A stretch of DNA of 37,682 bases from a virus. Lineage: Duplodnaviria; Heunggongvirae; Uroviricota; Caudoviricetes. The notes under the pieces are model-generated. The model made no database searches. It was given only the letters and a program-made list of their open reading frames with translations, and was not told where the DNA came from. Position numbers and translations under genes: made by a program. The stretch is from IMG/VR virus record IMGVR_UViG_2778261545_000003; one strand, 5' to 3'. Shown piece by piece: positions 1,140-22,162 of the stretch; positions within the stretch are counted from its first letter, which is position 1, and every line of letters begins with the position of its first letter.

Positions 1140-2129
1140 TCACTCCTGTGCTTTTTCAGCGGTACTTGGCTTTAGTTTTTCTTTGGTTGAATCCCATAAA
1201 GATTGGATTCCCGGAGGGAGTTCTGTTTTGTCAGAAAATGCAGAGTTACCAGACATATTCCAGTCTTTAAAGACTAACACAGCATCTTCTTTTGTTGACG
1301 TGGAACCATAAATTTGCAGGAATACTTGCCCAAACATTAGTGCATGTCTTCTATCTTTTCTCAAAATTGATTCATGGGTATATTTTTTAGAGTTGCCAAG
1401 GCAAATATATGCTAGCCAAGAAAGAATGGAAATACCAATTAAACCACGTGTGAAAAAATAAAATAGCTCAAAGCCTTTAACATTGTTGAAGTCAATTGTG
1501 GCGTAGAGTGTATAAAATGATGCACATACAGCAAGTAGCCCAAAAATGCAGCCAGTAAAAGCCCATACTTGCGACATTTTAATGAAATATAAGTCATCTG
1601 AACTTAGTTCACTTTTAACGCTATCGACATATCCTGGTATTTTCTCATCAATCCTTTCTTGTTGTACTCGGCTTTGTAATTCGCTGTTAGATGCTTCAAG
1701 TTGCTTTATTCTAGATACGGCTTGCTCAATAATTGCTTCTTTTTCAGAATTTAGTTTTTCTAAATTCTCATTCCGAAGATGTAACGTAGCTTTGGACTCT
1801 TCAGCCTCCAATAAACGTTTGGTATATGATCGCATTATCTCTCGAAGATGTTTTTGTTCTTTTATTAATTCATCTATCTTATTGTTTTCATTAATAAAAA
1901 TATCTCCAGCTTTATCGCTGTAGTTCATTTTTTCTTGCTGGGCTAATTTCCAGTAGTATTCTCTGAATTTATCAAGTTCACCTTTTTTTAATAAGTCGAC
2001 TAAGTAGGCGCGTTCATTTTCATTAAATTTATGTAGATTTTCATTTAAAATATTATAAAGATCTTTCCATTCGCAATTAACTTTTTCAACATAATCGTTG
2101 TTTTCATTTTTTTTATTTTCAGAATTCAT
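1140..2129 (-). CDS. Cargo protein, N-terminal coiled coil plus two predicted transmembrane helices (candidate superinfection-exclusion/abortive-infection effector)
   Basis: ORF in the track is 1140..2207; the internal ATG at 2129 has an AAGGA Shine-Dalgarno and avoids overlap with cI. Product about 329 aa; N-terminal 200 aa rich in E/K/L/N heptad-like sequence, then hydrophobic stretches (VWAFTGCIFGLLAVCASFYTLYA and LFYFFTRGLIGISILSWLAYICLG). AT-rich relative to neighbours. Confidence 0.6.
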   Translation of the reverse strand: MNSENKKNENNDYVEKVNCEWKDLYNILNENLHKFNENERAYLVDLLKKGELDKFREYYWKLAQQEKMNYSDKAGDIFINENNKIDELIKEQKHLREIMRSYTKRLLEAEESKATLHLRNENLEKLNSEKEAIIEQAVSRIKQLEASNSELQSRVQQERIDEKIPGYVDSVKSELSSDDLYFIKMSQVWAFTGCIFGLLAVCASFYTLYATIDFNNVKGFELFYFFTRGLIGISILSWLAYICLGNSKKYTHESILRKDRRHALMFGQVFLQIYGSTSTKEDAVLVFKDWNMSGNSAFSDKTELPPGIQSLWDSTKEKLKPSTAEKAQE

Positions 2130-2139
2130 GTATGTTCCT

Positions 2140-3078
2140 TTAAATTTCCTTTGAAAAAACGCAACAACATTTTGCGATGGTTGTAATGTCTTCAAGCTTA
2201 CAAACAAAATCAGTTGTATCTGATGTGATTTTTACTTTTCCAACTGGAATTCTTGTTAATTTTCTTAAACTTACTTTACCTTCAATCTCAATCAACCAAC
2301 TACCATCTGAAACATCATCATATTCTGTATCTGCAATAAAGGTTTTTCCTTCTGCGGTAACTCCAATAGGTTTTTTCAATCCGGAAGGTATAAGCGTCTT
2401 GTCAAATGCTAAGTAGCCTTCATCATGTAATTTACCGTCAATGATTGTTTGGTGTTTAAGTTGGGCTACAGAGCTGGAATTATCGATAAATTTGGGGCCA
2501 TTGCCGTTTGTGAGCCAGAGTAATGAAGTTCCTGTTTCAAGAGCGCATTGAATGATCCAATCGCTAGGAAACGTGTCTCGTAAGTACCTGTTTGCTACAG
2601 TGCTTTTTGAAACCTGCAAATGGTTTGCTAGGGCTTGTCGGGTGCTAAAGCCGTAGGCTGCGACTAAGCGATCAATTGCCGCCTTCCCTCCTTTATTAGG
2701 ATTTATGCTGGTCTCGATTGGGAACTTTTGGGCTATTGAGTTAGTTCTATCCAGGTCATCAGATTTGGTATGGGCTAAACGTTCATCATTTAATAAAACT
2801 GAGGATGATTCACAGCTGATTCCCGATGCCAACCAGTCGATAGATGCGCCGGTCTCTATACTGCAAATTATCACCCAGTCAGCAGGAAATGTGTCACGAG
2901 CATACCTGTTAGCCATCGTGCTTTGTGAGATACCCAGATGATTGCAAAATGCTTGCCGCGAAGTAAAACCATACGCAGCAAGTATACGCTCAATTACTTT
3001 CTGTCCCCCACGGTTTTGCATTATTGAAGTTTTTAGACTCTCGCTAATATGGCGAAATGTGTTTTTTTGAGTTGACAT
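2140..3078 (-). CDS. cI: 186-type CI-like immunity repressor with tandemly duplicated N-terminal DNA-binding domain
   Basis: 312-aa ORF divergent from apl/cII. Two about 60-aa repeats (VIERILAAYGFTSRQAFCNHLGISQSTMANRYARDTFPADWVIICSIETGASIDWL and AIDRLVAAYGFSTRQALANHLQVSKSTVANRYLRDTFPSDWIIQCALETGTSLLWL), about 60 percent identical, matching the phage CI-repressor N-terminal HTH pattern. Confidence 0.7.
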   Translation of the reverse strand: MSTQKNTFRHISESLKTSIMQNRGGQKVIERILAAYGFTSRQAFCNHLGISQSTMANRYARDTFPADWVIICSIETGASIDWLASGISCESSSVLLNDERLAHTKSDDLDRTNSIAQKFPIETSINPNKGGKAAIDRLVAAYGFSTRQALANHLQVSKSTVANRYLRDTFPSDWIIQCALETGTSLLWLTNGNGPKFIDNSSSVAQLKHQTIIDGKLHDEGYLAFDKTLIPSGLKKPIGVTAEGKTFIADTEYDDVSDGSWLIEIEGKVSLRKLTRIPVGKVKITSDTTDFVCKLEDITTIAKCCCVFSKEI

Positions 3079-3087
3079 AACCGTTAT

Positions 3088-3125
3088 GAGATCCTAATCT
3101 CCGTTTTGTGAAGTTCTGGTCACAA
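3088..3125. promoter_or_regulatory. Candidate operator inverted repeats in the cI-apl switch region
   Basis: GAGAT-ccta-ATCTC (3088..3101) and TTGTGA-N8-TCACAA (3106..3125) lie in the 88-bp gap between divergent cI and apl. Confidence 0.3.
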
Positions 3126-3166
3126 TTCAAACCGGCTCACCACAAGCCAATAGGAGATGTTGCATC

Positions 3167-3388
3167 ATGACCCCTAACATTTCAATAACTCTGAATACGC
3201 CACATGTCACAATTGAGCGTTATAGCGAACTTACTGGTCTTTCAATCGATACAATTAACGATATGCTGGCTGACGGTCGCATCCCTCGGCATCGCCTTCG
3301 GAAAGACAAGAAAAGAGAAAAGGTGATGATCAACCTTGCTGCTCTTACCGTTGATGCACTTACTGATTGCAATGTTGTATTCAACTAG
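3167..3388 (+). CDS. apl: Apl/Cox-like excisionase and switch regulator (small HTH protein)
   Basis: 73-aa ORF with AGGAG RBS, first gene of the rightward operon divergent from cI; HTH-like segment [24 protein letters not shown]. Confidence 0.6.
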
Positions 3389-3420
3389 TTCCATTTTGGG
3401 ATACATCAGGGGTATCGACC

Positions 3421-3930
3421 ATGTTTGATTACCAAGTTTCCAAACATCCACATTTTGATGAAGCCTGTCGTGCATTCGCATTGCGCCACAACCTGGTGCA
3501 ACTGGCAGAACGTGCTGGCATGAATGTGCAGATTCTGCGGAACAAGCTGAACCCATCTCAACCTCATTTATTAACCGCACCAGAAATCTGGCTGCTTACC
3601 GATCTGACTGAAGATTCAACGCTGGTAGATGGTTTTCTGGCACAGATTCACTGCCTGCCATGTGTACCGATTAATGAGGTTGCAAAAGAGAAACTGCCGC
3701 ACTACGTCATGAGCGCAACTGCAGAGATCGGACGTGTTGCAGCAGGTGCGGTATCTGGTGATGTAAAAACTAGTGCCGGTCGTCGTGATGCTATCAGCAG
3801 CATTAACTCTGTAACACGACTGATGGCGCTGGCTGCTGTTTCATTGCAGGCCCGTTTACAGGCTAATCCTGCGATGGCGAGTGCAGTTGATACCGTGACT
3901 GGCCTCGGTGCTTCATTCGGTTTGCTGTGA
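3421..3930 (+). CDS. cII: CII-like lysogeny-establishment activator (186 CII family)
   Basis: About 170 aa from the ATG at 3421 (SD AGGGG); position after apl and size match 186 CII; resemblance to 186 CII is from memory. Confidence 0.6.
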
Positions 3931-3937
3931 GGTGCTT

Positions 3938-4138
3938 ATGCTGACGAAAGAACCATCATTTGCATCGCTGCTGGTAAAACAAAGCCCGGCAATGCACTAC
4001 GGTCACGGCTGGATCATGGGTGAGGATGGTAAACGCTGGCATCCGTGCCGTTCACAAGATGAATTGCTGGCAGAACTATCTACGAAAAAACGGGGGAACA
4101 AATGGCTATTGAAGGCGCTGCGGCGACTGTTCCATTAA
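3938..4138 (+). CDS. Hypothetical early protein
   Basis: ORF with GAGG RBS upstream of ATG 3938; early operon position (186 fil/dhr region); no recognisable motif. Confidence 0.4.
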   Translation: MLTKEPSFASLLVKQSPAMHYGHGWIMGEDGKRWHPCRSQDELLAELSTKKRGNKWLLKALRRLFH

Positions 4139-4443
4139 GCCCCGGTGAACGCCTGAATGGACTTAATCACATAGCGGAATTAAGGGCAAAAGTTTTTGGC
4201 CTGAATATTGAGTCAGAGCTTGAGCGGTTTATTAAAAATATGCGTGATCCACGGGATATCAATAACGAACAAAATAAACGAGCACTGGCAGCCATATTCT
4301 TTATGGCAAAAATTCCGGCTGAACGTCATAGCATCAGCATCAATGAGCTGACCACTGACGAAAAGCGGGAGTTGATTAAAGCAATGAATCATTTTCGTGC
4401 AGTGGTGAGCTTATTTCCCAGACGGCTAACCATGCCGAATTAA
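4102..4443 (+). CDS. Hypothetical early protein
   Basis: 113-aa ORF in the rightward early operon, overlapping the preceding ORF end. Confidence 0.45.
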   Translation: MAIEGAAATVPLSPGERLNGLNHIAELRAKVFGLNIESELERFIKNMRDPRDINNEQNKRALAAIFFMAKIPAERHSISINELTTDEKRELIKAMNHFRAVVSLFPRRLTMPN

Positions 4444-4510
4444 CCAACTAATGAAATTAATGGCGTAAACCCGCCGAGCATCCCTTTATCTAAATTCAGG
4501 AGAATTGATT

Positions 4511-4744
4511 ATGCGTAATATTGAGATCCTCACGACTAAAACCGGATCGGATGATGCAGGGCTTAATATTTTACTGACAGAGGCTCGTCTGGAAGAACGC
4601 CGGGCAAGGGCTGAAGCAATGGCAGCTCGCCTTGATAGCCTGGCGTGTCATATCTCATCCCGTCAGCTAAACCACGTGGAAGCGGCAGAACTGCTGCGTG
4701 TGACTGCTGAAGCAATCCAGAACGAAGCGCAGGAGATCCACTAA
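4511..4744 (+). CDS. Hypothetical early protein
   Basis: ATG at 4511 preceded by AGGAG; stop overlaps the next start (TAATG). Confidence 0.5.
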   Translation: MRNIEILTTKTGSDDAGLNILLTEARLEERRARAEAMAARLDSLACHISSRQLNHVEAAELLRVTAEAIQNEAQEIH

Positions 4745-4971
4745 TGGCTGATGCAATGGATCTCGTACAGCAGCGCGTTGAAGAAGAACGCCAGCGCCAT
4801 ATCCGTGCTGCCCGTGCCAAAACACCGGGCGTGTCTCGCGTGCTTTGCATTGAGTGTGAAGCGCCAATTCCGCCAGCACGCCGCCGTGCCATTCCGGGTG
4901 TGCAGCTTTGCATTACCTGCCAGGAAATTGCAGAGCTGAAAGGCAAACATTACAACGGAGGTGCTGTATGA
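4744..4971 (+). CDS. TraR/DksA-family C4 zinc-finger protein
   Basis: 75 aa with CxxC...CxxC (CIECEAP...CITCQE); stop overlaps the dam start (ATGA). Confidence 0.7.
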   Translation: MADAMDLVQQRVEEERQRHIRAARAKTPGVSRVLCIECEAPIPPARRRAIPGVQLCITCQEIAELKGKHYNGGAV

Positions 4972-5825
4972 GCACCATCCTGAAATGGGCGGGAAATAAA
5001 ACCGCCATTATGTCCGAACTGAAAAAACACCTTCCTGCTGGCCCGCGACTGGTTGAACCTTTCGCGGGTTCCTGTGCTGTGATGATGGAGACGGATTACC
5101 CCAGCTATCTTGTTGCGGATATTAATCCTGATTTAATCAACCTCTATAAAAAGGTTGCTGCTGATTGCGAGGCGTTTATATCTCGTGCCAGAGCTTTATT
5201 TGAGGAAGCAAACAGGGAGTTGGCTTATTACAACATAAGGCAGGAGTTTAATTACTCCACTGAAATTACTGATTTCATGAAAGCGGTATATTTCCTGTAT
5301 CTCAATCGTCATGGTTACCGTGGGTTATGTCGTTATAACAAGAGCGGGCATTTCAACATTCCATACGGTAATTATAAAAATCCGTATTTCCCTGAAAAAG
5401 AAATTCGCGCATTTGCAGAGAAAGCCCAGCAAGCAACGTTTATCTGCGCCAGCTTTGATGAAACGCTGGCGATGCTGCAGGTGGGGGATGTGGTGTATTG
5501 CGATCCGCCTTATGACGGTACGTTTTCCGGCTATCACACTAACGGCTTCACTGAAGATGACCAGTATCACCTGGCATCTGTTCTTGAATATCGATCATCA
5601 GAAGGTCATCCAGTCATTGTTTCTAACAGTGACACATCCCTGATCCGTTCGCTGTATCGAAATTTCACTCACCACTACATCAAGGCAAAACGCAGCATCG
5701 GCGTGTCGGCTGGCGAGAGTAAATCTGCAACAGAAATCATCGCTGTTTCTGGGGCGCGCTGCTGGGTGGGATTTGATCCTTCGCGTGGCGTGGATAGTTC
5801 TGCCGTGTACGGAGTGCGTGCATGA
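4968..5825 (+). CDS. dam: DNA adenine methyltransferase (Dam-like, N6-adenine)
   Basis: N-terminal SAM-binding region (ILKWAGNK...PFAGSCAV) and DPPY catalytic motif (VYCDPPYDG); GGAGG RBS before ATG 4968. Confidence 0.85.
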
Positions 5826-8236
5826 GCCATGCTGATATGAACAACTGCAGCGGCTTTAACGAGGCCGCCGCAGCATTCTCATGGAACAGCCCGAAAAAGG
5901 CTATTAACCCTTATCTGGACCTGGCGGAAGTTGCGCCGGTTTCTGCGCTTTCAAACCTGATCACTCTGTACGCTGCCGATAACGAGCAGGAACAACTGCG
6001 CCGCGAGGCACTGAGTGATCAGGTTTGGGAGCGTTATTTCTTTAATGAATCCCGTGATCCTGTCCAGCGCGAAATGGAGCAGGATAAGTTCATTAGCCGG
6101 GCAAAGTTGGCGCATGAGCAGCAGCGTTTTAACCCGGACATGGTCATTCTGGCAGACGTTAACGCCCAGCCTTCCCATATCAGCAGGCCGCTGATGCAAC
6201 GTATTGAATACTTCAGCAGCCTTGGCAGGCCAAAGGCTTATTCCCGCTATTTACGTGAGACGATTAAGCCATGTCTGGAACGGCTGGAGCATGTACGCGA
6301 CAGTCAGCTATCCACTTCTTTTCGCTTTATGGCAAGCCATGAAGGGCTGGACGGCCTGCTGATTCTGCCTGAAATGAGTCAGGATCAGGTGAAACGCCTG
6401 TCCACCCTTGTTGCTGCGCATATGAGCATGTGCCTTGATGCAGCTTGTGGCGATTTGTATGCCACCGATGACGTTAAGCCAGAAGAAATCCGCAAGACAT
6501 GGGAAAAGGTGGCAGCAGAAACCCTGCGACTGGATGTCATACCGCCTGCGTTTGAGCAACTCCGCCGGAAAAGAAACCGCCGTAAACCCGTGCCCTATGA
6601 ACTCATTCCGGGTTCGCTGGCGCGTATGTTGTGCGCCGATTGGTGGTACCGGAAATTATGGAAGATGCGTTGCGAATGGCGGGAAGAGCAGTTGCGTGCT
6701 GTTTGCCTGGTCAGCAAAAAAGCATCTCCCTATGTCAGCTATGAAGCCATGATGCATAAACGTGAGCAGCGCCGTAAGTCGCTGGAGTTTTTCCGTTCTC
6801 ATGAACTGGTGAACGAAGACGGCGACACGCTGGACATGGAGGATGTGGTAAACGCCAGCAGCAGCAACCCTGCGCATCGCCGCAATGAGATGATGGCCTG
6901 TGTTAAAGGTCTGGAGCTTATCGCGGAAATGCGCGGTGACTGCGCCGTTTTCTACACCATCACCTGTCCGTCACGTTTCCATTCCACGCTAAATAACGGC
7001 AGGCCCAACCCGACCTGGACAAATACGACGGTAAGACAAAGCAGTGATTATCTGGTCGGCATGTTTGCTGCATTTCGTAAGGCGATGCACAAAGCCGGAT
7101 TGCGCTGGTATGGCGTGCGGGTGGCTGAGCCGCATCATGACGGTACAGTTCACTGGCACCTGTTGTGTTTTATGCGCAAAAAAGATCGCCGCACCATTAC
7201 TGCTTTGTTGCGTAAGTTTGCCATTCGTGAAGACCGCGAGGAGCTGGGTAATAACACGGGACCACGCTTTAAGTCTGAGCTGATAAACCCGCGCAAAGGT
7301 ACGCCAACAAGCTACATCGCGAAATACATCAGTAAGAACATTGACGGGCGTGGTCTGGCTGGCGAGATCAGCAAGGAAACGGGTAAATCCCTGCGTGATA
7401 ACGCTGAATACGTTAATGCCTGGGCGTCTCTGCATCGTGTTCAGCAATTCCGCTTCTTTGGCATTCCGGGGCGTCAGGCTTACCGTGAACTGCGATTGCT
7501 GGCTGGTCAGGCGGCAAGGCAACAGGGGGACAAAAAAGCAGGTGCGCCGGTACTGGATAACCCGCGCCTTGATGCAATCCTGGCTGCTGCTGATGCTGGT
7601 TGTTTTGCCACCTACATCATGAAGCAGGGCGGCGTACTGGTTCCCCGCAAATATCACCTCATCAGAACTGCTTATGAAATCAACGAAGAACCGACCGCAT
7701 ATGGCGATCACGGTATTCGTATTTATGGCATCTGGTCACCCATTGCAGAGGGCAAGATCTGCACTCATGCGGTGAAGTGGAAAATGGTTCGTAAGGCCGT
7801 TGACGTTCAGGAGGCGGCAGCCGACCAGGGCGCTTGCGCCCCTTGGACTCGTGGCAATAACTGTCCCCTTGCTGAAAATTTGAACCAACAGGAGAAAGAT
7901 AAATCAGCTGATGGGGACACCAGAACGGACATTACCCGCATGGATGACAAGGAGTTGCACGATTACCTGCACAGTATGAGCAAAAAAGAGCGCCGGGAAC
8001 TGGCAGCAAGGTTACGCCTGGTTAAACCGAAACGGCGTAAAGACTACAAACAGCGAATTACAGACCATCAGCGACTGCAGCTCGTCTATGAGCTGAAGTC
8101 CAGAGGATTTGATGGTAGCGAGAAAGAGGTCGATGTACTCCTTCGCGGCGGCAGTATTCCGTCAGGAGCAGGCCTGCGTATCTTCTATCGGAACCAGCGT
8201 TTGCGGGAAGATGATAAGTGGCGGAACCTGTATTAA
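5822..8236 (+). CDS. A: Replication initiation protein A (rolling-circle HUH endonuclease)
   Basis: 804 aa with HUH motif ([10 protein letters not shown]) and paired-tyrosine motif (YIAKYISK) typical of P2 A / phiX174 A initiators; start overlaps dam stop. Confidence 0.9.
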
Positions 8237-8328
8237 TTCCGCGGGCTAACAATTCGTGCTCTTAATAATACCAGGCATATCATGCTGATGAATGTAAAAA
8301 AACGTTTTACATCAGTAAGATTATTATA

Positions 8329-8348
8329 TACTGTAAATATAAACAGTG
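8329..8348 (+). promoter_or_regulatory. LexA box (SOS operator) overlapping the promoter of the tum/dinI-like operon
   Basis: TACTGTAAATATAAACAGTG matches CTGT-N8-ACAG exactly; TTTACA -35-like hexamer at 8306..8311 just upstream. Confidence 0.8.
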
Positions 8349-8389
8349 GTTATGCATACAGTGTTGCTTGTGGTGTCATAGGAGGAAAA

Positions 8390-8578
8390 ATGCAGGACTA
8401 TTTTTTGGAGTCTTTGAAGCTCCAGCGCATTGATTTTTTTCTTAAGCTTGTAGCGGCTAGTGAGTGTAGTGATGAAGAGAAGGGGCTGGCTCTGCAGTGG
8501 GTTTCTGAATTGACTGATGAACTCATGGCAAAGATCAGAATCCACGAATACAGCCGCTCAATGGATGTCATCAGTTGA
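8390..8578 (+). CDS. Small protein in SOS operon (possible Tum-like antirepressor component)
   Basis: 62-aa ORF from the ATG at 8390 with GGAGG RBS, immediately downstream of the LexA box. Confidence 0.4.
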   Translation: MQDYFLESLKLQRIDFFLKLVAASECSDEEKGLALQWVSELTDELMAKIRIHEYSRSMDVIS

Positions 8579-8588
8579 GGTGACTTTT

Positions 8589-8822
8589 ATGCGCATTGAA
8601 ATAATGATCGATAAAGAGCAGAAAATTAGCCAGTCTACCCTGGACGCCCTTGAATCCGAGCTTTACCGCAATCTGCGCCCCCTGTATCCCAAAGCGGTAA
8701 TTCGTATCCGTAAAGGTAGCTCTAATGGTGTGGAACTGACCGGACTGCAACTGGACGAAGAAAGAAAACAAGTGATGAAAATTATGCAGAAGGTGTGGGA
8801 AGACGACAGCTGGCTGCATTAA
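8589..8822 (+). CDS. DinI-family protein
   Basis: 77 aa, MRIEIMIDKEQ...LDALESELYRNLRPLYP...VWEDDSWL resembles E. coli DinI; SD GAGGTGA before ATG 8589. Confidence 0.75.
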   Translation: MRIEIMIDKEQKISQSTLDALESELYRNLRPLYPKAVIRIRKGSSNGVELTGLQLDEERKQVMKIMQKVWEDDSWLH

Positions 8823-8825
8823 GAA

Positions 8826-8868
8826 ACGTTGCTGGCGTCTGAACTTGCTTCTGACGTCAGCAACGTTG
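8826..8868 (+). terminator. Imperfect 15-bp inverted repeat after the dinI-like gene (possible terminator or binding site)
   Basis: AACGTTGCTGGCGTC-N13-GACGTCAGCAACGTT with one mismatch; no strong U-tract. Confidence 0.3.
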
Positions 8869-9088
8869 AACAACTAGTTTAGTGGGGCATTAGTCATGGG
8901 GTAAAATACAGTAACCATTATTTTCACTTCCGCTCAGATTTAACCGAACGTTAGTTTTGCTACGTATGATGGGCTGCAAATTACCTTTTGGGATTTGTGA
9001 TAGATACGAAAATCCTATTAGATGCTTGTTAGACCGGAAGCGCCACTTCGAACGAAAAGTAATGGCCACTTATGCCGGTTTAAAAGCC

Positions 9089-9619
9089 TTAACCTTGTAT
9101 AGTTATTTGAATATTTTCTTCATTAACACCAAAGTATAGGGCTAGCCCTGCTTTTGCCTCCTGAAGTGTTAACGGCTTAACTACATTTTCTTCTTCTTCT
9201 TCGTACTCATCACCCGCTTGATCGACAATCGAATTAGTCGGGGTTAATTTGGGAAGAGCTTTAAATTCCAACTTGTCAGCCTCAATGCCAATGTCTTTGA
9301 GGTTGCGATAAGAAACGGGATTCCGATTGCCATCCCATTGTCCTGGGATGTCAATTTCAGCATAAGAATTGATGTTTATGATCCAGCGTTTAGGGTTTTC
9401 TGGAGCCCTGCTTACTCCCGAGATTCGACCGATCATAAAAGCATGATGATGTTTTGCTTCTTGTGATCCCCAGTCCTTTCTCGAATTTTGTACACAAACT
9501 AAATATTCGTGCTTAGCTGCATGGCTGGCGTCAAGTCTCCATGCTTGGCTTCCCCCTGTGTTCAAAATCTCTGTTAAACCACGAGCAGTAAGTACAGTAA
9601 TACAGTTGGTAGTAGCCAT
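9089..9619 (-). CDS. Hypothetical cargo protein (176 aa) in the variable region between the SOS operon and cos
   Basis: Clean ORF on the opposite strand with acidic stretch EYEEEEEN; AT-rich; no recognisable motif. Confidence 0.55.
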   Translation of the reverse strand: MATTNCITVLTARGLTEILNTGGSQAWRLDASHAAKHEYLVCVQNSRKDWGSQEAKHHHAFMIGRISGVSRAPENPKRWIININSYAEIDIPGQWDGNRNPVSYRNLKDIGIEADKLEFKALPKLTPTNSIVDQAGDEYEEEEENVVKPLTLQEAKAGLALYFGVNEENIQITIQG

Positions 9620-9936
9620 TGAATTGTGACCCCGTCTTTTTTAGAGAAATACTGTTGATGAATGTAGTTTACGTATTTTTTTATGGAGTAGTCAAGTTAG
9701 TATTATGCTCATTATTGGCTGTTTGTTGAGTGTTATGAGTTGGTACTTTGTGTAGTACCTCTTGATTTATGAGGATTAAATCTAAGTTATGACAAAGGGA
9801 GGCAGGGGGAACGCGCAGCGCAAGGTGGACAGGAGGCCATAAGGACTCACTTGAAGTAAGAAAAGATCGATAAAGCAACAATGCATGTCTATGCCGCATG
9901 AATTCGCATGATCGTTTGAGGATCGTTTTAGTTGAG

Positions 9937-9964
9937 GCCCGCCAGGAATGGCGGGCTTTTGTTT
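9937..9964 (+). terminator. Intrinsic terminator (GC hairpin plus T-tract) with no obvious upstream plus-strand gene
   Basis: GCCCGCC-aggaat-GGCGGGC followed by TTTTGTTT. Confidence 0.5.
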
Positions 9965-10005
9965 ATGTCATGCAAGTGCATGAAAACCACTACATAAAGC
10001 GGGCA

Positions 10006-10024
10006 GGCGTGGCGGGGATACGAG
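10006..10024. other. Candidate cos (cohesive end) site
   Basis: GGCGTGGCGGGGATACGAG resembles the 19-nt P2/186 cohesive ends as I recall them (P2 GGCGAGGCGGGGAAAGCAC), matching at 14 of 19 positions; lies in a GC-rich patch of an otherwise AT-rich intergenic region. Confidence 0.4.
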
Positions 10025-10176
10025 CGCGCGTTAAGCCATATAAGAGTTATATATTGATTTGATTGCTGGACATACATACAGTATCGCTCTATCATCTAAT
10101 AAATCTTAGGGTATTTGACAATGTTTGGATAAAATGGAACCTAACTTATTCATAATCCGCTAAACAGGGATGTCAG

Positions 10177-11091
10177 ATGCCATACCAATTGGTAGAGCTT
10201 AGCCCCGTAGCTAACGATCTTGAACAGTTAGGAACCAAAGAGAAGTTTTGGTTCTATTTCTCCGATGACACTGTAAATTTGCAGTTGTTTAAGTACTCTA
10301 GGCCAGGTACTGGCGAGCATTGGTCTGAAAAGTGTGCTGCTGAGTTATGTCATTTGCTTAACATTCCACATGCTAGCTATGATTTGGCGCGATACAATGG
10401 TCGATTCGGTGTGGTGACTCAGAATATCATTCCATCTGGTTTCCGGATGGTAATGGGAAATGAAGTGCTTCACAGTTCGACATTCGATTATCCTGGGCCT
10501 TTACAAGCCGGGGAAAAGCCGGTAAGGGTCAGAGAACACACTGTCACAAGGGTCTTGGGTTGTTTAGATAGGGAATCTATCAAGCCTCCTCCGAGTGTAT
10601 ATGATCTAACCGGGCTAAATGCAGCAGATGTATTTTGTGGATATTTGATGCTCGATGCACTTGTGAGTAATCAAGATCGCCACCATGAAAATTGGGCAAT
10701 CATGCTTAACAATGAAACTGGTGAGCAGTTTTTGTGTCCAACATACGATCATGCCGCTAGTTTAGGAAGGGAGATGTTAGATGATGAGCGTAACGAACGG
10801 CTTAATACTAAAGATAAAAATCGACAAATCCCATGTTTTGTAAGAAAAGCTCGCTCTGAGCTATTCAAAGCAAAAACTGATAAAAAGCCCTTGCTGACTG
10901 TTGAAGCATTTCAACATGCAGTTGAAGGGAGAGTTGCCGCTCGCGACCATTGGTTAGGTAAGTTGAGCGTTTTAACAGAAGATTCCATTACAGATGTGTT
11001 TAACCAAGTGCCTTCATCGTGTATATCCGACAGTGCACGTAGATTTGCAACGTTAATGGTAATGGAAAATCGCAGAAGGTTACTAGAATGA
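10177..11091 (+). CDS. HipA-like / PI3-4K-like small Ser/Thr kinase (cargo)
   Basis: 304 aa; catalytic-loop-like LVSNQDRHHENWAIM (DRH..N) and downstream YDHAASLG (metal-binding Asp), plus N-terminal LGTKEKFW; AGGGA RBS; stop overlaps the next gene by 4 nt. Confidence 0.55.
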   Translation: MPYQLVELSPVANDLEQLGTKEKFWFYFSDDTVNLQLFKYSRPGTGEHWSEKCAAELCHLLNIPHASYDLARYNGRFGVVTQNIIPSGFRMVMGNEVLHSSTFDYPGPLQAGEKPVRVREHTVTRVLGCLDRESIKPPPSVYDLTGLNAADVFCGYLMLDALVSNQDRHHENWAIMLNNETGEQFLCPTYDHAASLGREMLDDERNERLNTKDKNRQIPCFVRKARSELFKAKTDKKPLLTVEAFQHAVEGRVAARDHWLGKLSVLTEDSITDVFNQVPSSCISDSARRFATLMVMENRRRLLE

Positions 11092-11828
11092 CTAATACAA
11101 ACTCCGTTTACGTCGCATGGCAGGCACCAGATACCAGAGACTGGCATGTTGTTGGTAACTTGCAAGAGCGCAAATCGGGGTATGTTTTCAGGTATACCAA
11201 AGGTGCTCTTAAATCTTCTAAATTTACAAAGTTTAGCGGCATGAGTGATGTTCGTGAAACTTATGTATCGGAAGAATTGTTTCCTCTTTTTAAAAATCGC
11301 CTTTTATCACCGAGACGTCCAGAGTATCCGAGTTTCATTAAATGGCTTGGATTTGAAGAAGATAAGGTAAATCCTATCGATATTCTTGCTCGCTCGGGAG
11401 GCTTACGAAGCACTGATCAGCTGCAGATTTTCAAAAAAATTGATTTTGATTCTGATGGTAACTTTGAGCATTTTTTCTTCTTACATGGACTTGGTTACTT
11501 GAATAGCTTAGCTAATGCTCGTGTATCTGAATTGAAACCGGGGCAAATTTTGCGTCTTTGCTTGGATCTTCAAAATGAATACGATGGGGATGCTGTTGTC
11601 GTTCGTGCAGATAAACCAGCTGAAATCGTTGGTTACTGCCCTAGGTATTTAAGTAATGACATCAAGAAGATGTTATTGGATGATCCAAAATCAATCACTT
11701 TAACGGTCGAAAAGATTAGCGATGATGCTCCTCATAACTATCGGTTATTATGTAAATTATCAGGGGTACTAAGCCAAGCCTGTCAATCGACGCTGATTCC
11801 TCAAGATGAGTTTGAACCTATTGAGTAA
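11088..11828 (+). CDS. Protein with C-terminal HIRAN-like domain (cargo, partner of the kinase)
   Basis: 246 aa; C-terminal LQNEYDGDAVVVRADKPAEIVGYCPRYLSNDIKKMLLD fits the HIRAN pattern (N.YD.nAi.V...........lGY.PR..........L); translationally coupled to the upstream kinase gene. Confidence 0.5.
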   Translation: MTNTNSVYVAWQAPDTRDWHVVGNLQERKSGYVFRYTKGALKSSKFTKFSGMSDVRETYVSEELFPLFKNRLLSPRRPEYPSFIKWLGFEEDKVNPIDILARSGGLRSTDQLQIFKKIDFDSDGNFEHFFFLHGLGYLNSLANARVSELKPGQILRLCLDLQNEYDGDAVVVRADKPAEIVGYCPRYLSNDIKKMLLDDPKSITLTVEKISDDAPHNYRLLCKLSGVLSQACQSTLIPQDEFEPIE

Positions 11829-19783: not shown

Positions 19784-20177
19784 AGCGGTGCCTTATGTCC
19801 GCAATAACCCGGACAAACTGCATCTGTTTGTGGATAACGGTTCGCTGGTTGCCACGGGGGCCAGCTCCATGTCATGGGAGTACCGCTATACCCTGAACGT
19901 GGTGATAGAGGATTTCAGCGGCGACCAGAATCTGCTGATGGCCCCGGTTTTACTGTGGCTTCGGGATAACCAGCCCGATGCCATCAATAACCCGGCGTTA
20001 CGGGAAAAGCTATTCACCTTTGAGGTGGATATTTTGCGCAACGATGTCTGTGATATCAGCCTTAACCTGCAACTGACGGAACGTGTGCTGGTCAGTACTG
20101 ACGGCAGTGTGTCGAGCGTTGAAGCTGTAGCAGAACCCGATGAACCTGAAGAAATGTGGACGGTGAAACGTGGCTGA
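19745..20177 (+). CDS. R: Tail completion protein R
   Basis: P2 gpR-like ORF; likely GTG start at 19745 with AGGAG RBS (the track ORF starts at 19725). Confidence 0.7.
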
Positions 20178-20616
20178 ACTGCAGAAGGTGGACGACTGGC
20201 TGAGTGCCTTGCTGGCGAATCTGGAACCAGCCACGAGAAGCCGCATGATGCGCCAACTGGCGCAGGAACTGCGCCGGACACAGCAGCAGAATATCAGGAT
20301 GCAGCGCAATCCAGATGGCAGCAGTTATGAACCGCGCAGGGTAACAGCACGCAGCAAAAAAGGCCGCATCAAACGTCAGATGTTTGCAAAGCTGCGCACC
20401 ACAAAATACCTGAAAACTGCCGCCAGCGCCGACTCTGCCAGCGTACAGTTTGAAGGCAAGGTGCAGCGTATTGCCCGTGTTCACCATTACGGCCTGCGCG
20501 ATCGTGTCAGTCGCAAAGGACCGGAAGTGCGTTATGCAGAGCGGCGGTTGCTTGGTATCAATAACAAGATGCAGTCTGTCATTGGAGATATATTGCATCA
20601 GTGGCTGTTTAAATGA
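20170..20616 (+). CDS. S: Tail completion / virion morphogenesis protein S
   Basis: 148-aa ORF, P2 gpS position. Confidence 0.8.
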   Translation: MAELQKVDDWLSALLANLEPATRSRMMRQLAQELRRTQQQNIRMQRNPDGSSYEPRRVTARSKKGRIKRQMFAKLRTTKYLKTAASADSASVQFEGKVQRIARVHHYGLRDRVSRKGPEVRYAERRLLGINNKMQSVIGDILHQWLFK

Positions 20617-20660: not shown

Positions 20661-21476
20661 TCATATTTTTAATTTTTTATGGATATGCTCCATCCCTAAA
20701 TTAGATATCTCTTTTTTTAGCTGGGTTTCACTTGCAGTTATCCAGTTTTTTCCACAGTTTGGTAGAAGCATCTCGCTACTTGACGGATTGATAAGTTTTA
20801 CTTTTTCATTCTTTATAATTTTGTTTTTCAAATAACTTTTACTTATTAAGGCTGATTTTTCAGTTATAACGAGATAAAAAAATATGCTTCCAAAAAATAT
20901 ACCTTTTAAAATAATACCGCTGCGTAACAGAACAGGGTCATTTTTGGTTATTCTCATTTTAAAGGGAGAGCAAAGGTTGTCTTCACTTGTAGGTATATTA
21001 AGTTCACTTTTTTGCTCGTCAGTAAGTTTAAGAGGCATGAGCAGTCCAGCGAAGAGCATGACATCTTTTTCTGAAGGCAAAGGTTCTCCGCGGAGAATAT
21101 AATCTTTATATGCGCCAAAAATATGTGTCGATGGATCATTGACCGCGCTTGCCGAGTTGTAAGAAATTTTCATTAACCAGCGTAGCAATAAATGATAATC
21201 ATAAGTTATAGTCGTTTGTGTCTTTAGATAAAGTTGGGTTAAGAAACCGTTTCTGGCTAAAAACTGACTTCCATAATCATCTAAAAAACTTAATGCTCCA
21301 CCATTGCATGTTTTACAAACATCGGCAATTGTTGCCTCACCACCAATTATATCATTTGCTCTCTCGTTCCAGCCTATAAAACGATCTCCAGATTCTTTTT
21401 GATATTTATATATAAATTTAGGGATAATATGTTCTCTTTCTATTATTCCATCTTGCTCGCAATATCTGCAGTGCAT
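20661..21476 (-). CDS. Cargo protein with N-terminal HNH-like (His-Me finger) nuclease motif
   Basis: 271 aa; CRYCEQ...EHIIPKF...GG...CKTCNGG arrangement typical of HNH endonucleases; strongly AT-rich, opposite strand, inserted between S and the V late promoter. Confidence 0.55.
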   Translation of the reverse strand: MHCRYCEQDGIIEREHIIPKFIYKYQKESGDRFIGWNERANDIIGGEATIADVCKTCNGGALSFLDDYGSQFLARNGFLTQLYLKTQTTITYDYHLLLRWLMKISYNSASAVNDPSTHIFGAYKDYILRGEPLPSEKDVMLFAGLLMPLKLTDEQKSELNIPTSEDNLCSPFKMRITKNDPVLLRSGIILKGIFFGSIFFYLVITEKSALISKSYLKNKIIKNEKVKLINPSSSEMLLPNCGKNWITASETQLKKEISNLGMEHIHKKLKI

Positions 21477-21583: not shown

Positions 21584-22162
21584 ATGAACGCACAATTAAC
21601 CGAAATCATGCGCCTTATCACCAACCTGATCCGCACTGGGGTAGTCACCGAAGTGGACAGGGAAAACTGGCTTTGCCGGGTGAAAACGGGCGAGCTTGAA
21701 ACTAACTGGATCAGTTGGCTGACGCTGCGTGCAGGAAATGCCCGGACATGGTGGCGACCATCGGAAGGTGAGCAGGTGGTGCTGCTGAGTCTGGGCGGTA
21801 ATCTGGAAACCGCGTTTGCCCTGCCTGCGGTCTACTCAAACCAGTTTCCGCCACCTTCAGGCTCTGAGGACGGCAACGTGACGGAATACCCGGACGGCGG
21901 CTGGTTTGAATACGAACCCGCCACCGGGCGCTGGTATGTCAGGGGCATCAAATCAATGGTCATTGAGGCCGCTGACAATATCACCCTGAAAACCAGTGTG
22001 TTTGTGCTGGAGGCTGACCGCACGCGTATTAACAGCGAAGTGGTGATTAATGGTGGCGTTACCCAGGGCGGCGGAGCGATGAGCTCTAACGGGATTGTGG
22101 TTGATGCGCATCAGCATACTGGCGTCCTGAAAGGCGGCGATACAACCGGAGGCCCGGTATGA
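21584..22162 (+). CDS. V: Baseplate spike protein V
   Basis: 192-aa ORF, P2 gpV-like. Confidence 0.85.
   Translation: MNAQLTEIMRLITNLIRTGVVTEVDRENWLCRVKTGELETNWISWLTLRAGNARTWWRPSEGEQVVLLSLGGNLETAFALPAVYSNQFPPPSGSEDGNVTEYPDGGWFEYEPATGRWYVRGIKSMVIEAADNITLKTSVFVLEADRTRINSEVVINGGVTQGGGAMSSNGIVVDAHQHTGVLKGGDTTGGPV

Follow-up and report, generated by a model that had tools for sequence, protein, structure and literature searches.

The region between gpA and gpQ near cos of P2-like prophages has been described as a recombination-driven hotspot of anti-phage systems (PMC9122126). In P2 itself, the slot from the end of the early operon to cos is filled by tin and old, which are oriented opposite to gene A, and the P2 annotation places the start of the old-tin mRNA about 150 bp from cosR. 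Both are lysogenic-conversion exclusion genes and non-essential cargo. Old is an ATPase/nuclease, and Tin is annotated as blocking the growth of T-even phages. Tin acts by poisoning T4 gp32.

In domains of the EVE, YTH and ASCH kind an aromatic pocket takes up a modified base that is flipped out, or a modified mononucleotide. YTH domains are the eukaryotic readers of m6A in RNA. The closest bacterial counterparts are the stand-alone EVE and ASCH proteins (Bell, Wolf & Koonin 2020, PMC7641849), small proteins of essentially one PUA-like reader domain with a predicted specificity for modified bases, which are found in defence or mobile contexts. Some of them are associated with restriction-modification, helicase-nuclease or toxin-antitoxin loci, and those beside restriction-modification and SNF2-nuclease systems have been read as specificity factors (PMC7641849). 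In the modification-dependent endonucleases of the PUA superfamily the sensor is joined to a nuclease; examples are the EVE-HNH enzymes VcaM4I and TspA15I, YenY4I with its PUA-DUF3427-nuclease build, and the GIY-YIG enzyme PD-T4-3 (PMC6765204, PMC7897488, PMC12923530). The PUA-like domains of Metis MisA and of PUA-Cal-HAD, abortive-infection systems that are both cargo of E. coli mobile elements, sense free m6dAMP (10.1101/2025.11.05.686725; PMC12871103). Metis carries an NAD diphosphatase as effector and PUA-Cal-HAD calcineurin-like and HAD phosphatases, and in PUA-Cal-HAD oligomerisation is part of the output.

Here, we analyze a gene for a protein of 176 amino acids in the window, a stretch of 37,682 nucleotides (IMG/VR record IMGVR_UViG_2778261545_000003). 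It is best explained as a self-contained accessory gene that a P2/186-type prophage carries in its hotspot close to cos, and its product as a protein made of an input part, the N-terminal domain, and an output part, the C-terminal tail.

Results

A solitary gene between the early operon and cos

The surroundings of the gene are those of a P2/186-type prophage of E. coli, with the following landmarks:

5822-8236: replication gene A (gpA)
between gene A and the 176-aa gene: a small PHROG-698 gene and a DinI-like gene, the latter ending at 8822
9089..9619, minus strand: coding sequence of 176 aa from the ORF list, with an ATG start and its stop codon at 9089-9091
10006..10024, plus strand: cos cohesive end, GGCGTGGCGGGGATACGAG, the right-hand boundary of the slot
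10177-11091: HipA-like kinase, beyond cos and before portal Q
11088-11828: HIRAN protein, beyond cos and before portal Q
minus strand: portal Q and terminase P

The cohesive-end sequence has a single match in the window, and together with about 45 bases upstream it aligns with the annotated cosR end of P2. From the DinI-like gene to cos, the 176-aa gene is the sole credible gene. The earlier note on this DNA had described it as AT-rich, on the opposite strand and alone in this interval, and this holds: its GC content is 0.42, whereas gpA has 0.53 and the genes for portal Q and terminase P have 0.55. The kinase and the HIRAN protein match PDC-M03A/B (PADLOC PDC-M03) strongly. They are a second, separate cargo, across cos from the 176-aa gene.

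Scans of the genes between gpA and Q with Pfam, NCBIfam, PADLOC and PHROGs found no OLD-type ATPase/nuclease, in line with the earlier note; the features of that family (an ABC-type ATPase plus a Toprim nuclease in about 590 aa) are absent from all genes from gpA to Q. Homology to P2 Tin (253 aa) was not found either, since tblastn against a phage collection that includes NC_001895 gave no P2 match at E<=1e-3. The 176-aa gene shares with P2 old-tin the slot, the strand, a (predicted) promoter beside cos and the status of non-essential cargo, while its product differs from Tin and Old in size and predicted fold, has no homology to them and, unlike Old, is no ATPase/nuclease.

The protein is identical in sequence to RefSeq WP_000246368.1, a 'hypothetical protein'. 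The exact sequence is present on 970 contigs and is labelled 'hypothetical' every time; in five identical E. coli prophage loci the gene is called as a CDS. Comparison with nine homologues of 66-98% protein identity gave dN/dS values of 0.06-0.13. Because of these values, and of hundreds of full-length homologues, the ORF is to be taken as real and not a chance reading frame, and judged by its substitution pattern the gene is under strong purifying selection. Searches of the literature by accession and topic found no study of the protein. WP_001433252, listed by Rousset et al. 2022, has the same gene arrangement and is also no more than 'hypothetical' there; it may be the same protein.

The gene sits in an exchangeable insert

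The limits of the insert and the candidate expression signals are as follows:

8825..8867, no strand: inverted repeat with 19-nt arms at 8825-8843 and 8849-8867, 89% complementary (repeat search)
8875..9881, no strand: cargo module of 1007 bp, GC 0.41, delimited by BLAST of the window against the prophage in NZ_CP127848 (L002)
8885..9088, no strand: non-coding filler of 204 bp downstream of the 176-aa gene
9630..9636, minus strand: Shine-Dalgarno-like GACGGGG, 10 nt upstream of the ATG, read from the sequence
9666..9729, minus strand: two sigma-70-like promoter candidates, TCAACA-16-CATAAT and TTGACT-18-TAAACT (consensus scan)

The near-isogenic E. coli prophage in NZ_CP127848 shares the DinI gene, cos, the kinase/HIRAN pair and the portal gene with the window and has 28 unrelated bp where the window has positions 8875-9881. 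The full 1007-bp module occurs in 8 of the 5426 complete E. coli genomes. P2-like prophages of E. coli, Citrobacter and Enterobacter (IMG/VR and other assemblies) hold an 88-100% identical gene at this position. This is the distribution check that the earlier note had proposed for the slot. Prophages sharing the 176-aa gene carry at least 11 different cargos from cos to Q, and where the cargo is unlike, nucleotide homology among them breaks at about 10030, just beyond cos. This switching of cargo and the position of the break fit the published recombination-driven hotspot between gpA and gpQ (PMC9122126). The comparison bears out the suggestion that this is a variable slot like that of P2 tin/old, by the insert missing from a near-isogenic prophage, by the range of cargos and by the old-tin-like layout, and it supports the view that the 176-aa gene is variable, horizontally acquired cargo at the tin/old position.

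The insert holds no further gene besides the 176-aa coding sequence. The 204-bp filler is missing from four P2-like loci (L051-L053 and L058), where the gene abuts the region of the DinI terminator; by this comparison the filler is not a conserved part of the module. It has no protein similarity to neighbour genes, and the idea that it is a remnant of the Sel1 gene seen on plasmids was ruled out for want of any similarity. Plasmid copies share the coding sequence alone with the prophage copy, and the flanks diverge. The functional unit is therefore the protein. A hidden RNA partner was considered and rejected, since 8600-10300 has no match to an Rfam family and the flanks are unlike those of the plasmid copies.

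The inverted repeat sits between the convergent DinI-like and 176-aa genes, is kept in related prophages and is likely to be a terminator shared by the two. The number of promoter candidates is not above that expected from shuffled sequence, so that the call for 9666-9729 is a position-based one.

A two-part protein with a conserved tail

AlphaFold2 was run twice, independently, on 42 and on 150 aligned sequences; both models have the same topology, and their mean pLDDT is 84.5 and 82.7, respectively. The protein divides into three segments:

9245..9619, minus strand: N-terminal domain, aa 1-125, beta-rich, predicted PUA-like pseudo-barrel of the EVE/YTH/ASCH type
9179..9244, minus strand: disordered variable linker, aa 126-147, with the EYEEEEEN stretch, pLDDT <50 in both models
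9092..9178, minus strand: C-terminal tail, aa 148-176, with a helix at 152-163, a short turn and a terminal strand

The blocks of the N-domain within aa 11-120 are modelled with a pLDDT of 88-97. In the alignment of 150 sequences T11, W27, N45, H57, F61, W95, R99, P101 and Y104 are invariant, a set rich in aromatic residues and in Asn and Arg. The domain is near neutral, with a family median pI of 6.5 and a net charge of -1. The low-confidence stretch between the two parts (aa 126/127-144/146 in the two models) varies in length and charge over the family, with a median of 21 aa and a net charge of -1. The acidic EYEEEEEN motif singled out by the earlier note is indeed present in the ORF translation, but it turns out to be a local feature of this disordered, variable linker and not a motif of the family, in which the median linker charge is -1.

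The tail is modelled with a pLDDT of 81-89, and its last strand is left unpaired in the monomer models. From 315 distinct tails we derived the consensus P-LTIAEAKxGLAxTFGVxPExIEITIRG, in which several positions exceed 95% conservation: A155 is kept in 314, I172 in 312 and K156 in 307 of them. A155 and K156 are also invariant in the alignment of 150 sequences. N-domain and tail are retained together in about 90% of 223 relatives, and even a plasmid clade of 30% identity has the same two-part build with a recognisable variant of the tail. No other ORF in the 85 loci examined contains the tail motif.

The N-domain is predicted to be PUA-like

Apart from PHROG 37247, a family of unknown function, sequence profiles are silent on the protein. 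Pfam, including its EVE, ASCH and YTH families, gave nothing at E<=1 apart from a chance match to Phage-Gp8, NCBIfam gave no match, PADLOC-DB v2 gave 0 families at E<=1, and both family profiles failed to find a PDB sequence at E<=10. Pfam-covered anti-restriction families (ArdA, ArdB/KlcA, Ocr and others) had no profile match, and neither the protein nor the 1007-bp insert contains a nuclease domain (HNH, PD-(D/E)XK, GIY-YIG or PLD) or an adjacent nuclease subunit. Thus the statement that the protein has no recognisable motif stands as far as sequence profiles go; it does not stand for the predicted fold.

In the predicted structure the N-domain has the pseudo-barrel that marks the PUA-like superfamily, in its EVE/YTH/ASCH branch. 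Fold matches comprise YTHDC1 (6.9), the EVE-HNH enzyme VcaM4I (6.9), other YTH domains (6.0-6.8), DrmA (6.5), the 5hmC-specific GIY-YIG enzyme PD-T4-3 (6.4), ZmASCH (6.2), THYN1 bound to 5mC DNA (5.8) and the N-domains of McrB (5.0-5.1); YqfB is also among them. Foldseek returned the same families with weak E-values, the best being the ASCH domain of TRIP4 (E=0.013, probability 0.98). Matches in BFVD are to uncharacterised phage proteins only, and structural look-alikes are found in T4-like and jumbo phages. Because the fold matches EVE, YTH and ASCH domains while sequence profiles miss the relation, we call the N-domain a putative divergent, unnamed branch of the PUA-like fold, without assigning it to EVE, YTH or ASCH. 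Identity to YTH domains is about 10% with no profile match, and the family belongs to bacterial mobile elements, in contrast to the eukaryotic readers.

W27, W95, Y104, F61 and N45 are the candidate pocket residues, and in the alignment these invariant positions, together with H57 and R99, are compatible with a candidate aromatic or polar pocket. The near-neutral charge of the domain speaks mildly for a small ligand, or for dependence on avidity, over strong binding to the nucleic-acid backbone.

A large family on plasmids and prophages

The earlier note had called the gene an orphan, which does not hold. When 1.84 billion representatives were searched exhaustively with a profile, 1003 clusters at 50% identity matched, and for 307 the E-value was <=1e-30; a word-indexed search had 74 clusters. 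PHROG 37247, which has no functional annotation, matches with E=6.3e-94 (residues 1-176 against profile positions 1-189). Searching with the N-domain only gave 791 proteins, and an N-domain-only alignment aimed at further fusions added, among the matches listed, 120 more that are stand-alone proteins of about 170 aa. Members of the family are all 'hypothetical' and all lack a Pfam domain. Their hosts include Enterobacterales, Acinetobacter, Alpha- and Betaproteobacteria, Acidobacteriota, Planctomycetes, Ktedonobacteria and a Nitrosotalea archaeon, and they are located in P2-like and other prophages, on plasmids, in genomic islands or chromosomal islets and in two jumbo phages.

PLSDB holds 193 plasmids with a homologue, 163 of which are small and mobilizable. 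Homologues are 74% identical on 5-6 kb ColE1-type plasmids of Enterobacter, Salmonella and Klebsiella and 48% identical on pRAY*, an aadB plasmid of Acinetobacter; ColE1 plasmids of 4.4-5.9 kb from E. coli and Salmonella carry a second clade, with 30% identity. The sole tblastn matches in the phage collection were 28%-identical copies in two lytic Brevundimonas jumbo phages, where the neighbours are all 'hypothetical'. By these searches, then, the family appears as a large and uncharacterised one on plasmids and prophages.

Three relatives have another domain in the position of the tail: P0204 a weak DUF3427 plus HNH, P0205 an AbiTii domain and P0217 a MazE/AbrB domain. By its domain order P0204 has the build of a modification-dependent nuclease such as YenY4I, that is sensor, DUF3427 and HNH.

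Among the 140 nearest neighbours in 47 non-redundant loci outside P2 there is no universal or conserved partner gene. Integrases, relaxases, toxin-antitoxin genes and phage structural genes make up most of them. The families that recur are integrases (5), MobA/MobL relaxases (3), HTH_3 (3) and RelE (2), and phage tail genes and TraD/TraG are also common. PADLOC matches among the neighbours are sporadic. In one locus the homologue precedes HmaA (PADLOC E=0) by 350 bp, in another it lies beside a type IIG restriction-modification enzyme and an HKD-Snf2 helicase, and on 6.2-kb ColE1-type plasmids a Sel1-repeat gene follows the homologue by 4 bp. A link to the 7-deazaguanine systems was discarded: the three PADLOC matches to 'DpdH' are almost certainly the three mutually homologous MobA/MobL neighbours on small plasmid contigs.

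From the rare fusions and the conflict-gene neighbours it would follow that the N-domain senses and that the part behind it is the output, which most members would have in the form of the 28-aa tail alone. The predicted fold and the fusions support a tie between the 176-aa protein and modification-sensing defence proteins.

Discussion

Compared with the stand-alone EVE and ASCH proteins (PMC7641849), the 176-aa protein is similarly small, with what is predicted to be essentially one PUA-like reader domain, possibly with specificity for modified bases, and some relatives lie in defence or mobile contexts close to HmaA or an HKD-Snf2 gene. However, the family lacks membership in the EVE or ASCH profiles, is mostly solitary with no fixed partner, and is strongly tied to small mobilizable plasmids and to the P2 cos hotspot. 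It also has the conserved helix-strand tail of 28 aa, of which we found no description in the related literature. In contrast to the PUA-superfamily endonucleases it has no nuclease domain, and because of this it cannot by itself restrict by cleavage. As in Metis MisA and PUA-Cal-HAD, an N-terminal PUA-like ligand pocket (here predicted) would be the input and the gene is cargo of a mobile element in E. coli, but the effectors of those systems are replaced by the 28-aa tail only, and PADLOC and Pfam detected no sequence similarity to them. We see a probable Pfam-less relative of the PUA-like modification readers of conflict systems, which its conserved tail and solitary lifestyle set apart.

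The earlier note's proposal of a candidate single-gene defence or anti-defence factor is supported in part. Our leading proposal, which we place a little below an even chance, is that the protein works as a stand-alone unit which senses or binds a modified base or nucleotide, acts in conflicts between mobile elements and probably protects the lysogen. The lysogen would make the protein constitutively from its own predicted promoter on the cos side, as with old-tin. The N-domain might then recognise a modification that marks the invader, or damage that the invader causes; phage DNA with dense modification, or the methylated nucleotides that DNA degradation sets free, would be examples of such targets. 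The invader could be blocked by cooperative coating through the tail or by engagement of an effector encoded elsewhere. The 28-residue tail on its flexible linker would most likely work by pairing of its beta-strand, either with that of its own copies or with a partner protein. We infer here ligand binding, defence over anti-defence and the working of the tail.

Several observations go against the reading as a sensor or binder. A near-neutral N-domain is atypical of a strong nucleic-acid binder. There is no effector domain, no conserved partner gene and no match to a PADLOC model. Homologues in lytic jumbo phages and on very small mobilizable plasmids would also be compatible with a function in the service of the mobile element.

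The last point leads to the main rival, anti-defence, which we consider unlikely. In this case the protein would shield modified bases of its own element against type IV restriction, or act as a sponge or decoy for an alarm of the m6dAMP type. A predicted ligand-binding fold devoid of an effector is what a sponge or shield is expected to look like, a near-neutral domain suits a small-molecule ligand, and look-alikes by structure occur in T4-like and jumbo phages. The carriers, mostly small mobilizable plasmids (163/193) and two lytic jumbo phages, have to establish themselves in new hosts, and immune systems with m6dAMP-sensing PUA-like domains, Metis and PUA-Cal-HAD, exist as targets (PMC12871103). 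Against this stands the arrangement in the prophage, where the gene converges on the early lytic operon from a predicted promoter of its own, like the lysogen-expressed old-tin, and does not have the position of an early anti-defence gene. The HNH and AbiTii fusions of relatives and the Abi_2 gene downstream of one homologue are defence architectures. Moreover, plasmids and temperate P2 leave the host genome undegraded, so that an m6dAMP sponge would be of little use to them, and a large survey recognised very few anti-defence genes in P2-like prophages (PMC13586616).

A role outside immunity seems to us improbable. The protein would then be a small enzyme or regulator, for example an ASCH-like hydrolase or RNase with a modified nucleoside or RNA as its substrate, or a DNA-binding regulator that reads methylation and tunes the physiology of the host or the element. 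Catalysis does occur among proteins of the ASCH fold, the structural matches include ZmASCH and YqfB, and the invariant polar residues T11, N45, H57, R78 and R99 could form an active site. A DNA-binding MazE/AbrB domain takes the place of the tail in P0217, and most loci have no defence neighbour. However, the gene is found almost wholly on mobile elements or in variable hotspots and is rare within a species (8/5426 E. coli genomes), a free-standing RNase normally needs an antitoxin and none is conserved, and the links to HNH, AbiTii and Abi_2 point to conflict systems.

The plasmid pRAY* bears on a further possibility, an accessory function in the relaxosome or mobilisation, or some other role in plasmid or phage maintenance, to which we give very little probability. 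On pRAY* the order is mobC, mobA, homologue (2142-2627) and Abi_2 on one strand, with 132 bp between the homologue and Abi_2, and on three small plasmid contigs a MobA/MobL gene adjoins the homologue. The derivative pRAY*-delta1, with a published size of 2808 bp, replicates and has lost mobilisation, which its authors attribute to mobA/mobC (PMC6160057). In the HindIII map of pRAY* only a deletion of 1742-5012 (3270 bp) leaves 2808 bp, and this deletion removes the homologue as well, so that a part in mobilisation would be possible for it in pRAY*, though not in prophages. Since it lies inside the deletion that matches pRAY*-delta1, the homologue is dispensable for replication of pRAY*, which speaks against a maintenance role. 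On ColE1-type plasmids the homologue lies outside the mob operon, and there are homologues in P2-like and other prophages, in chromosomal islets and in jumbo phages, which do not conjugate. In addition, the gene is missing from P2 and from near-isogenic P2-like prophages that are otherwise complete. Together with the pRAY* deletion, these complete prophages support the conclusion that this is not a structural or housekeeping phage gene, homology to which the earlier note had named as a finding that would overturn its proposal.

A third component of a HipA-like kinase/HIRAN system, or a spurious or decaying ORF, has a negligible chance: all three genes fall into a 3-kb stretch and the whole arrangement recurs in five E. 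coli genomes, but the link is rejected by comparative data showing that the parts assort independently (cos separates the 176-aa gene from the pair, many genomes have the pair without it, and it occurs with at least 11 other cargos), and a decaying ORF is ruled out by the strong purifying selection.

Returning to the sensor or binder, the protein might represent a new class of conflict proteins without an effector, a stand-alone PUA-like reader whose sole output is a 28-residue tail for oligomerisation or docking. This stronger claim is speculative and, in our opinion, rather unlikely to be right. Such a reader could polymerise on densely modified DNA of the invader and thus restrict by coating instead of cutting. 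Alternatively, it could mop up a modified nucleotide that serves as a danger signal, which would make it the first nucleotide sponge of the PUA type. If such a class existed, a single small gene on P2-like prophages and on small plasmids common in the clinic (pRAY*, ColE1-type) would tune which phages or plasmids a cell accepts. Should the protein read such a base or nucleotide and show a phenotype by itself, sensing of modification would be deployable without a fused enzyme, and the conserved tail would offer a handle on the mechanism of output. For the P2 cos hotspot, the gene would be a compact entry in the catalogue. More broadly, the finding would define a new Pfam-less family of about 1000 clusters that reaches from E. 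coli prophages to soil bacteria and an archaeon, and it would give a function to a gene carried by common small plasmids, the Acinetobacter plasmid pRAY* (aadB) and the 4-6 kb ColE1-type plasmids of Salmonella, E. coli, Enterobacter and Klebsiella.

Flanks of the 176-aa gene and the cos boundary

The two genes that the earlier note called the SOS operon lie on the 3' side of the 176-aa gene, and a second operon lies beyond cos:

8282-8822, plus strand: 62-aa PHROG-698 protein and DinI-like protein
10177-11828, plus strand: HipA-like kinase (304 aa) and HIRAN-domain protein (246 aa), two-gene operon between cos and the portal gene Q

At the position of the DinI-like gene, phage 186 carries Tum, a DinI-related antirepressor. 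The 204-bp stretch 3' of the 176-aa gene (8885-9088) has no homologue and no Rfam match, and the neighbouring proteins are dissimilar to it; it is missing from related P2-like prophages, where the 176-aa gene adjoins the probable DinI terminator. On the other side, in prophages that carry the 176-aa gene and differ in the next cargo (L042-L050), nucleotide homology stops a few bases from the cos cohesive end, at about position 10030. This break beside cos is consistent with cos-end-driven recombination, which has already been proposed for the hotspot.

The kinase and the HIRAN protein match PDC-M03A and PDC-M03B, a candidate system in PADLOC (E=2e-122 and 7e-93), and the pair occurs without the 176-aa gene in many E. 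coli prophages. A Vibrio 'HIRAN-kinase' pair is one of the cloned candidates in Rousset 2022.

Other AT-rich open reading frames

Two further AT-rich ORFs are found in the window:

1140-2207, minus strand: 355-aa ORF, GC about 0.33, with the integrase (1-1053) on one side and the 186-type CI repressor (2140-3078) on the other
20661-21476, minus strand: 271-aa ORF, GC 0.33-0.36, oriented against its two flanking tail genes, S (20170-20616) and V (21584-22162)

None of the PADLOC models matched either of them. The 355-aa ORF gave a weak coiled-coil match and nothing else, and may be a further accessory gene; the 271-aa ORF, with a sub-threshold HNH_5 match as its only hit, looks like the mark of a second cargo slot within the late operon.

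Plasmid homologues

Homologues of the 176-aa gene on plasmid-type loci have neighbours of their own:

L003 1156-1746 and L057 6531-7121: Sel1-repeat gene following the homologue
L087 (pRAY*, CP012954, an Acinetobacter resistance plasmid) 1341-4947: mobC, mobA, homologue and Abi_2 in one same-strand run

On ColE1-type plasmids of 5-6 kb and one viral contig, the gene for a Sel1-repeat protein, about 196 aa long, begins a few bases 3' of the closest plasmid homologues (69-74% identical). The two genes may form a unit; the Sel1 gene is lacking at the prophage copy. The published deletion pRAY*-delta1 lacks mobC, mobA and the homologue, with the Abi_2 gene partly removed; its authors ascribe the loss of mobilisation to mobA/mobC alone (PMC6160057).

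PUA-like proteins near gpA

Phage P2 itself encodes a small protein next to its replication gene:

L088 (phage P2) 2817-3146: Orf91, a DUF3850/ASCH-like protein, directly after gene A

Proteins of this type belong to a family other than that of the 176-aa protein. In supplementary files 4 and 6 of Rousset 2022, the hotspot table holds 143 occurrences of 'ASCH', which among the passages listed stand mostly as 'DUF3850/ASCH'. As Orf91 and these entries show, small PUA-like proteins recur beside gpA in P2-like phages.
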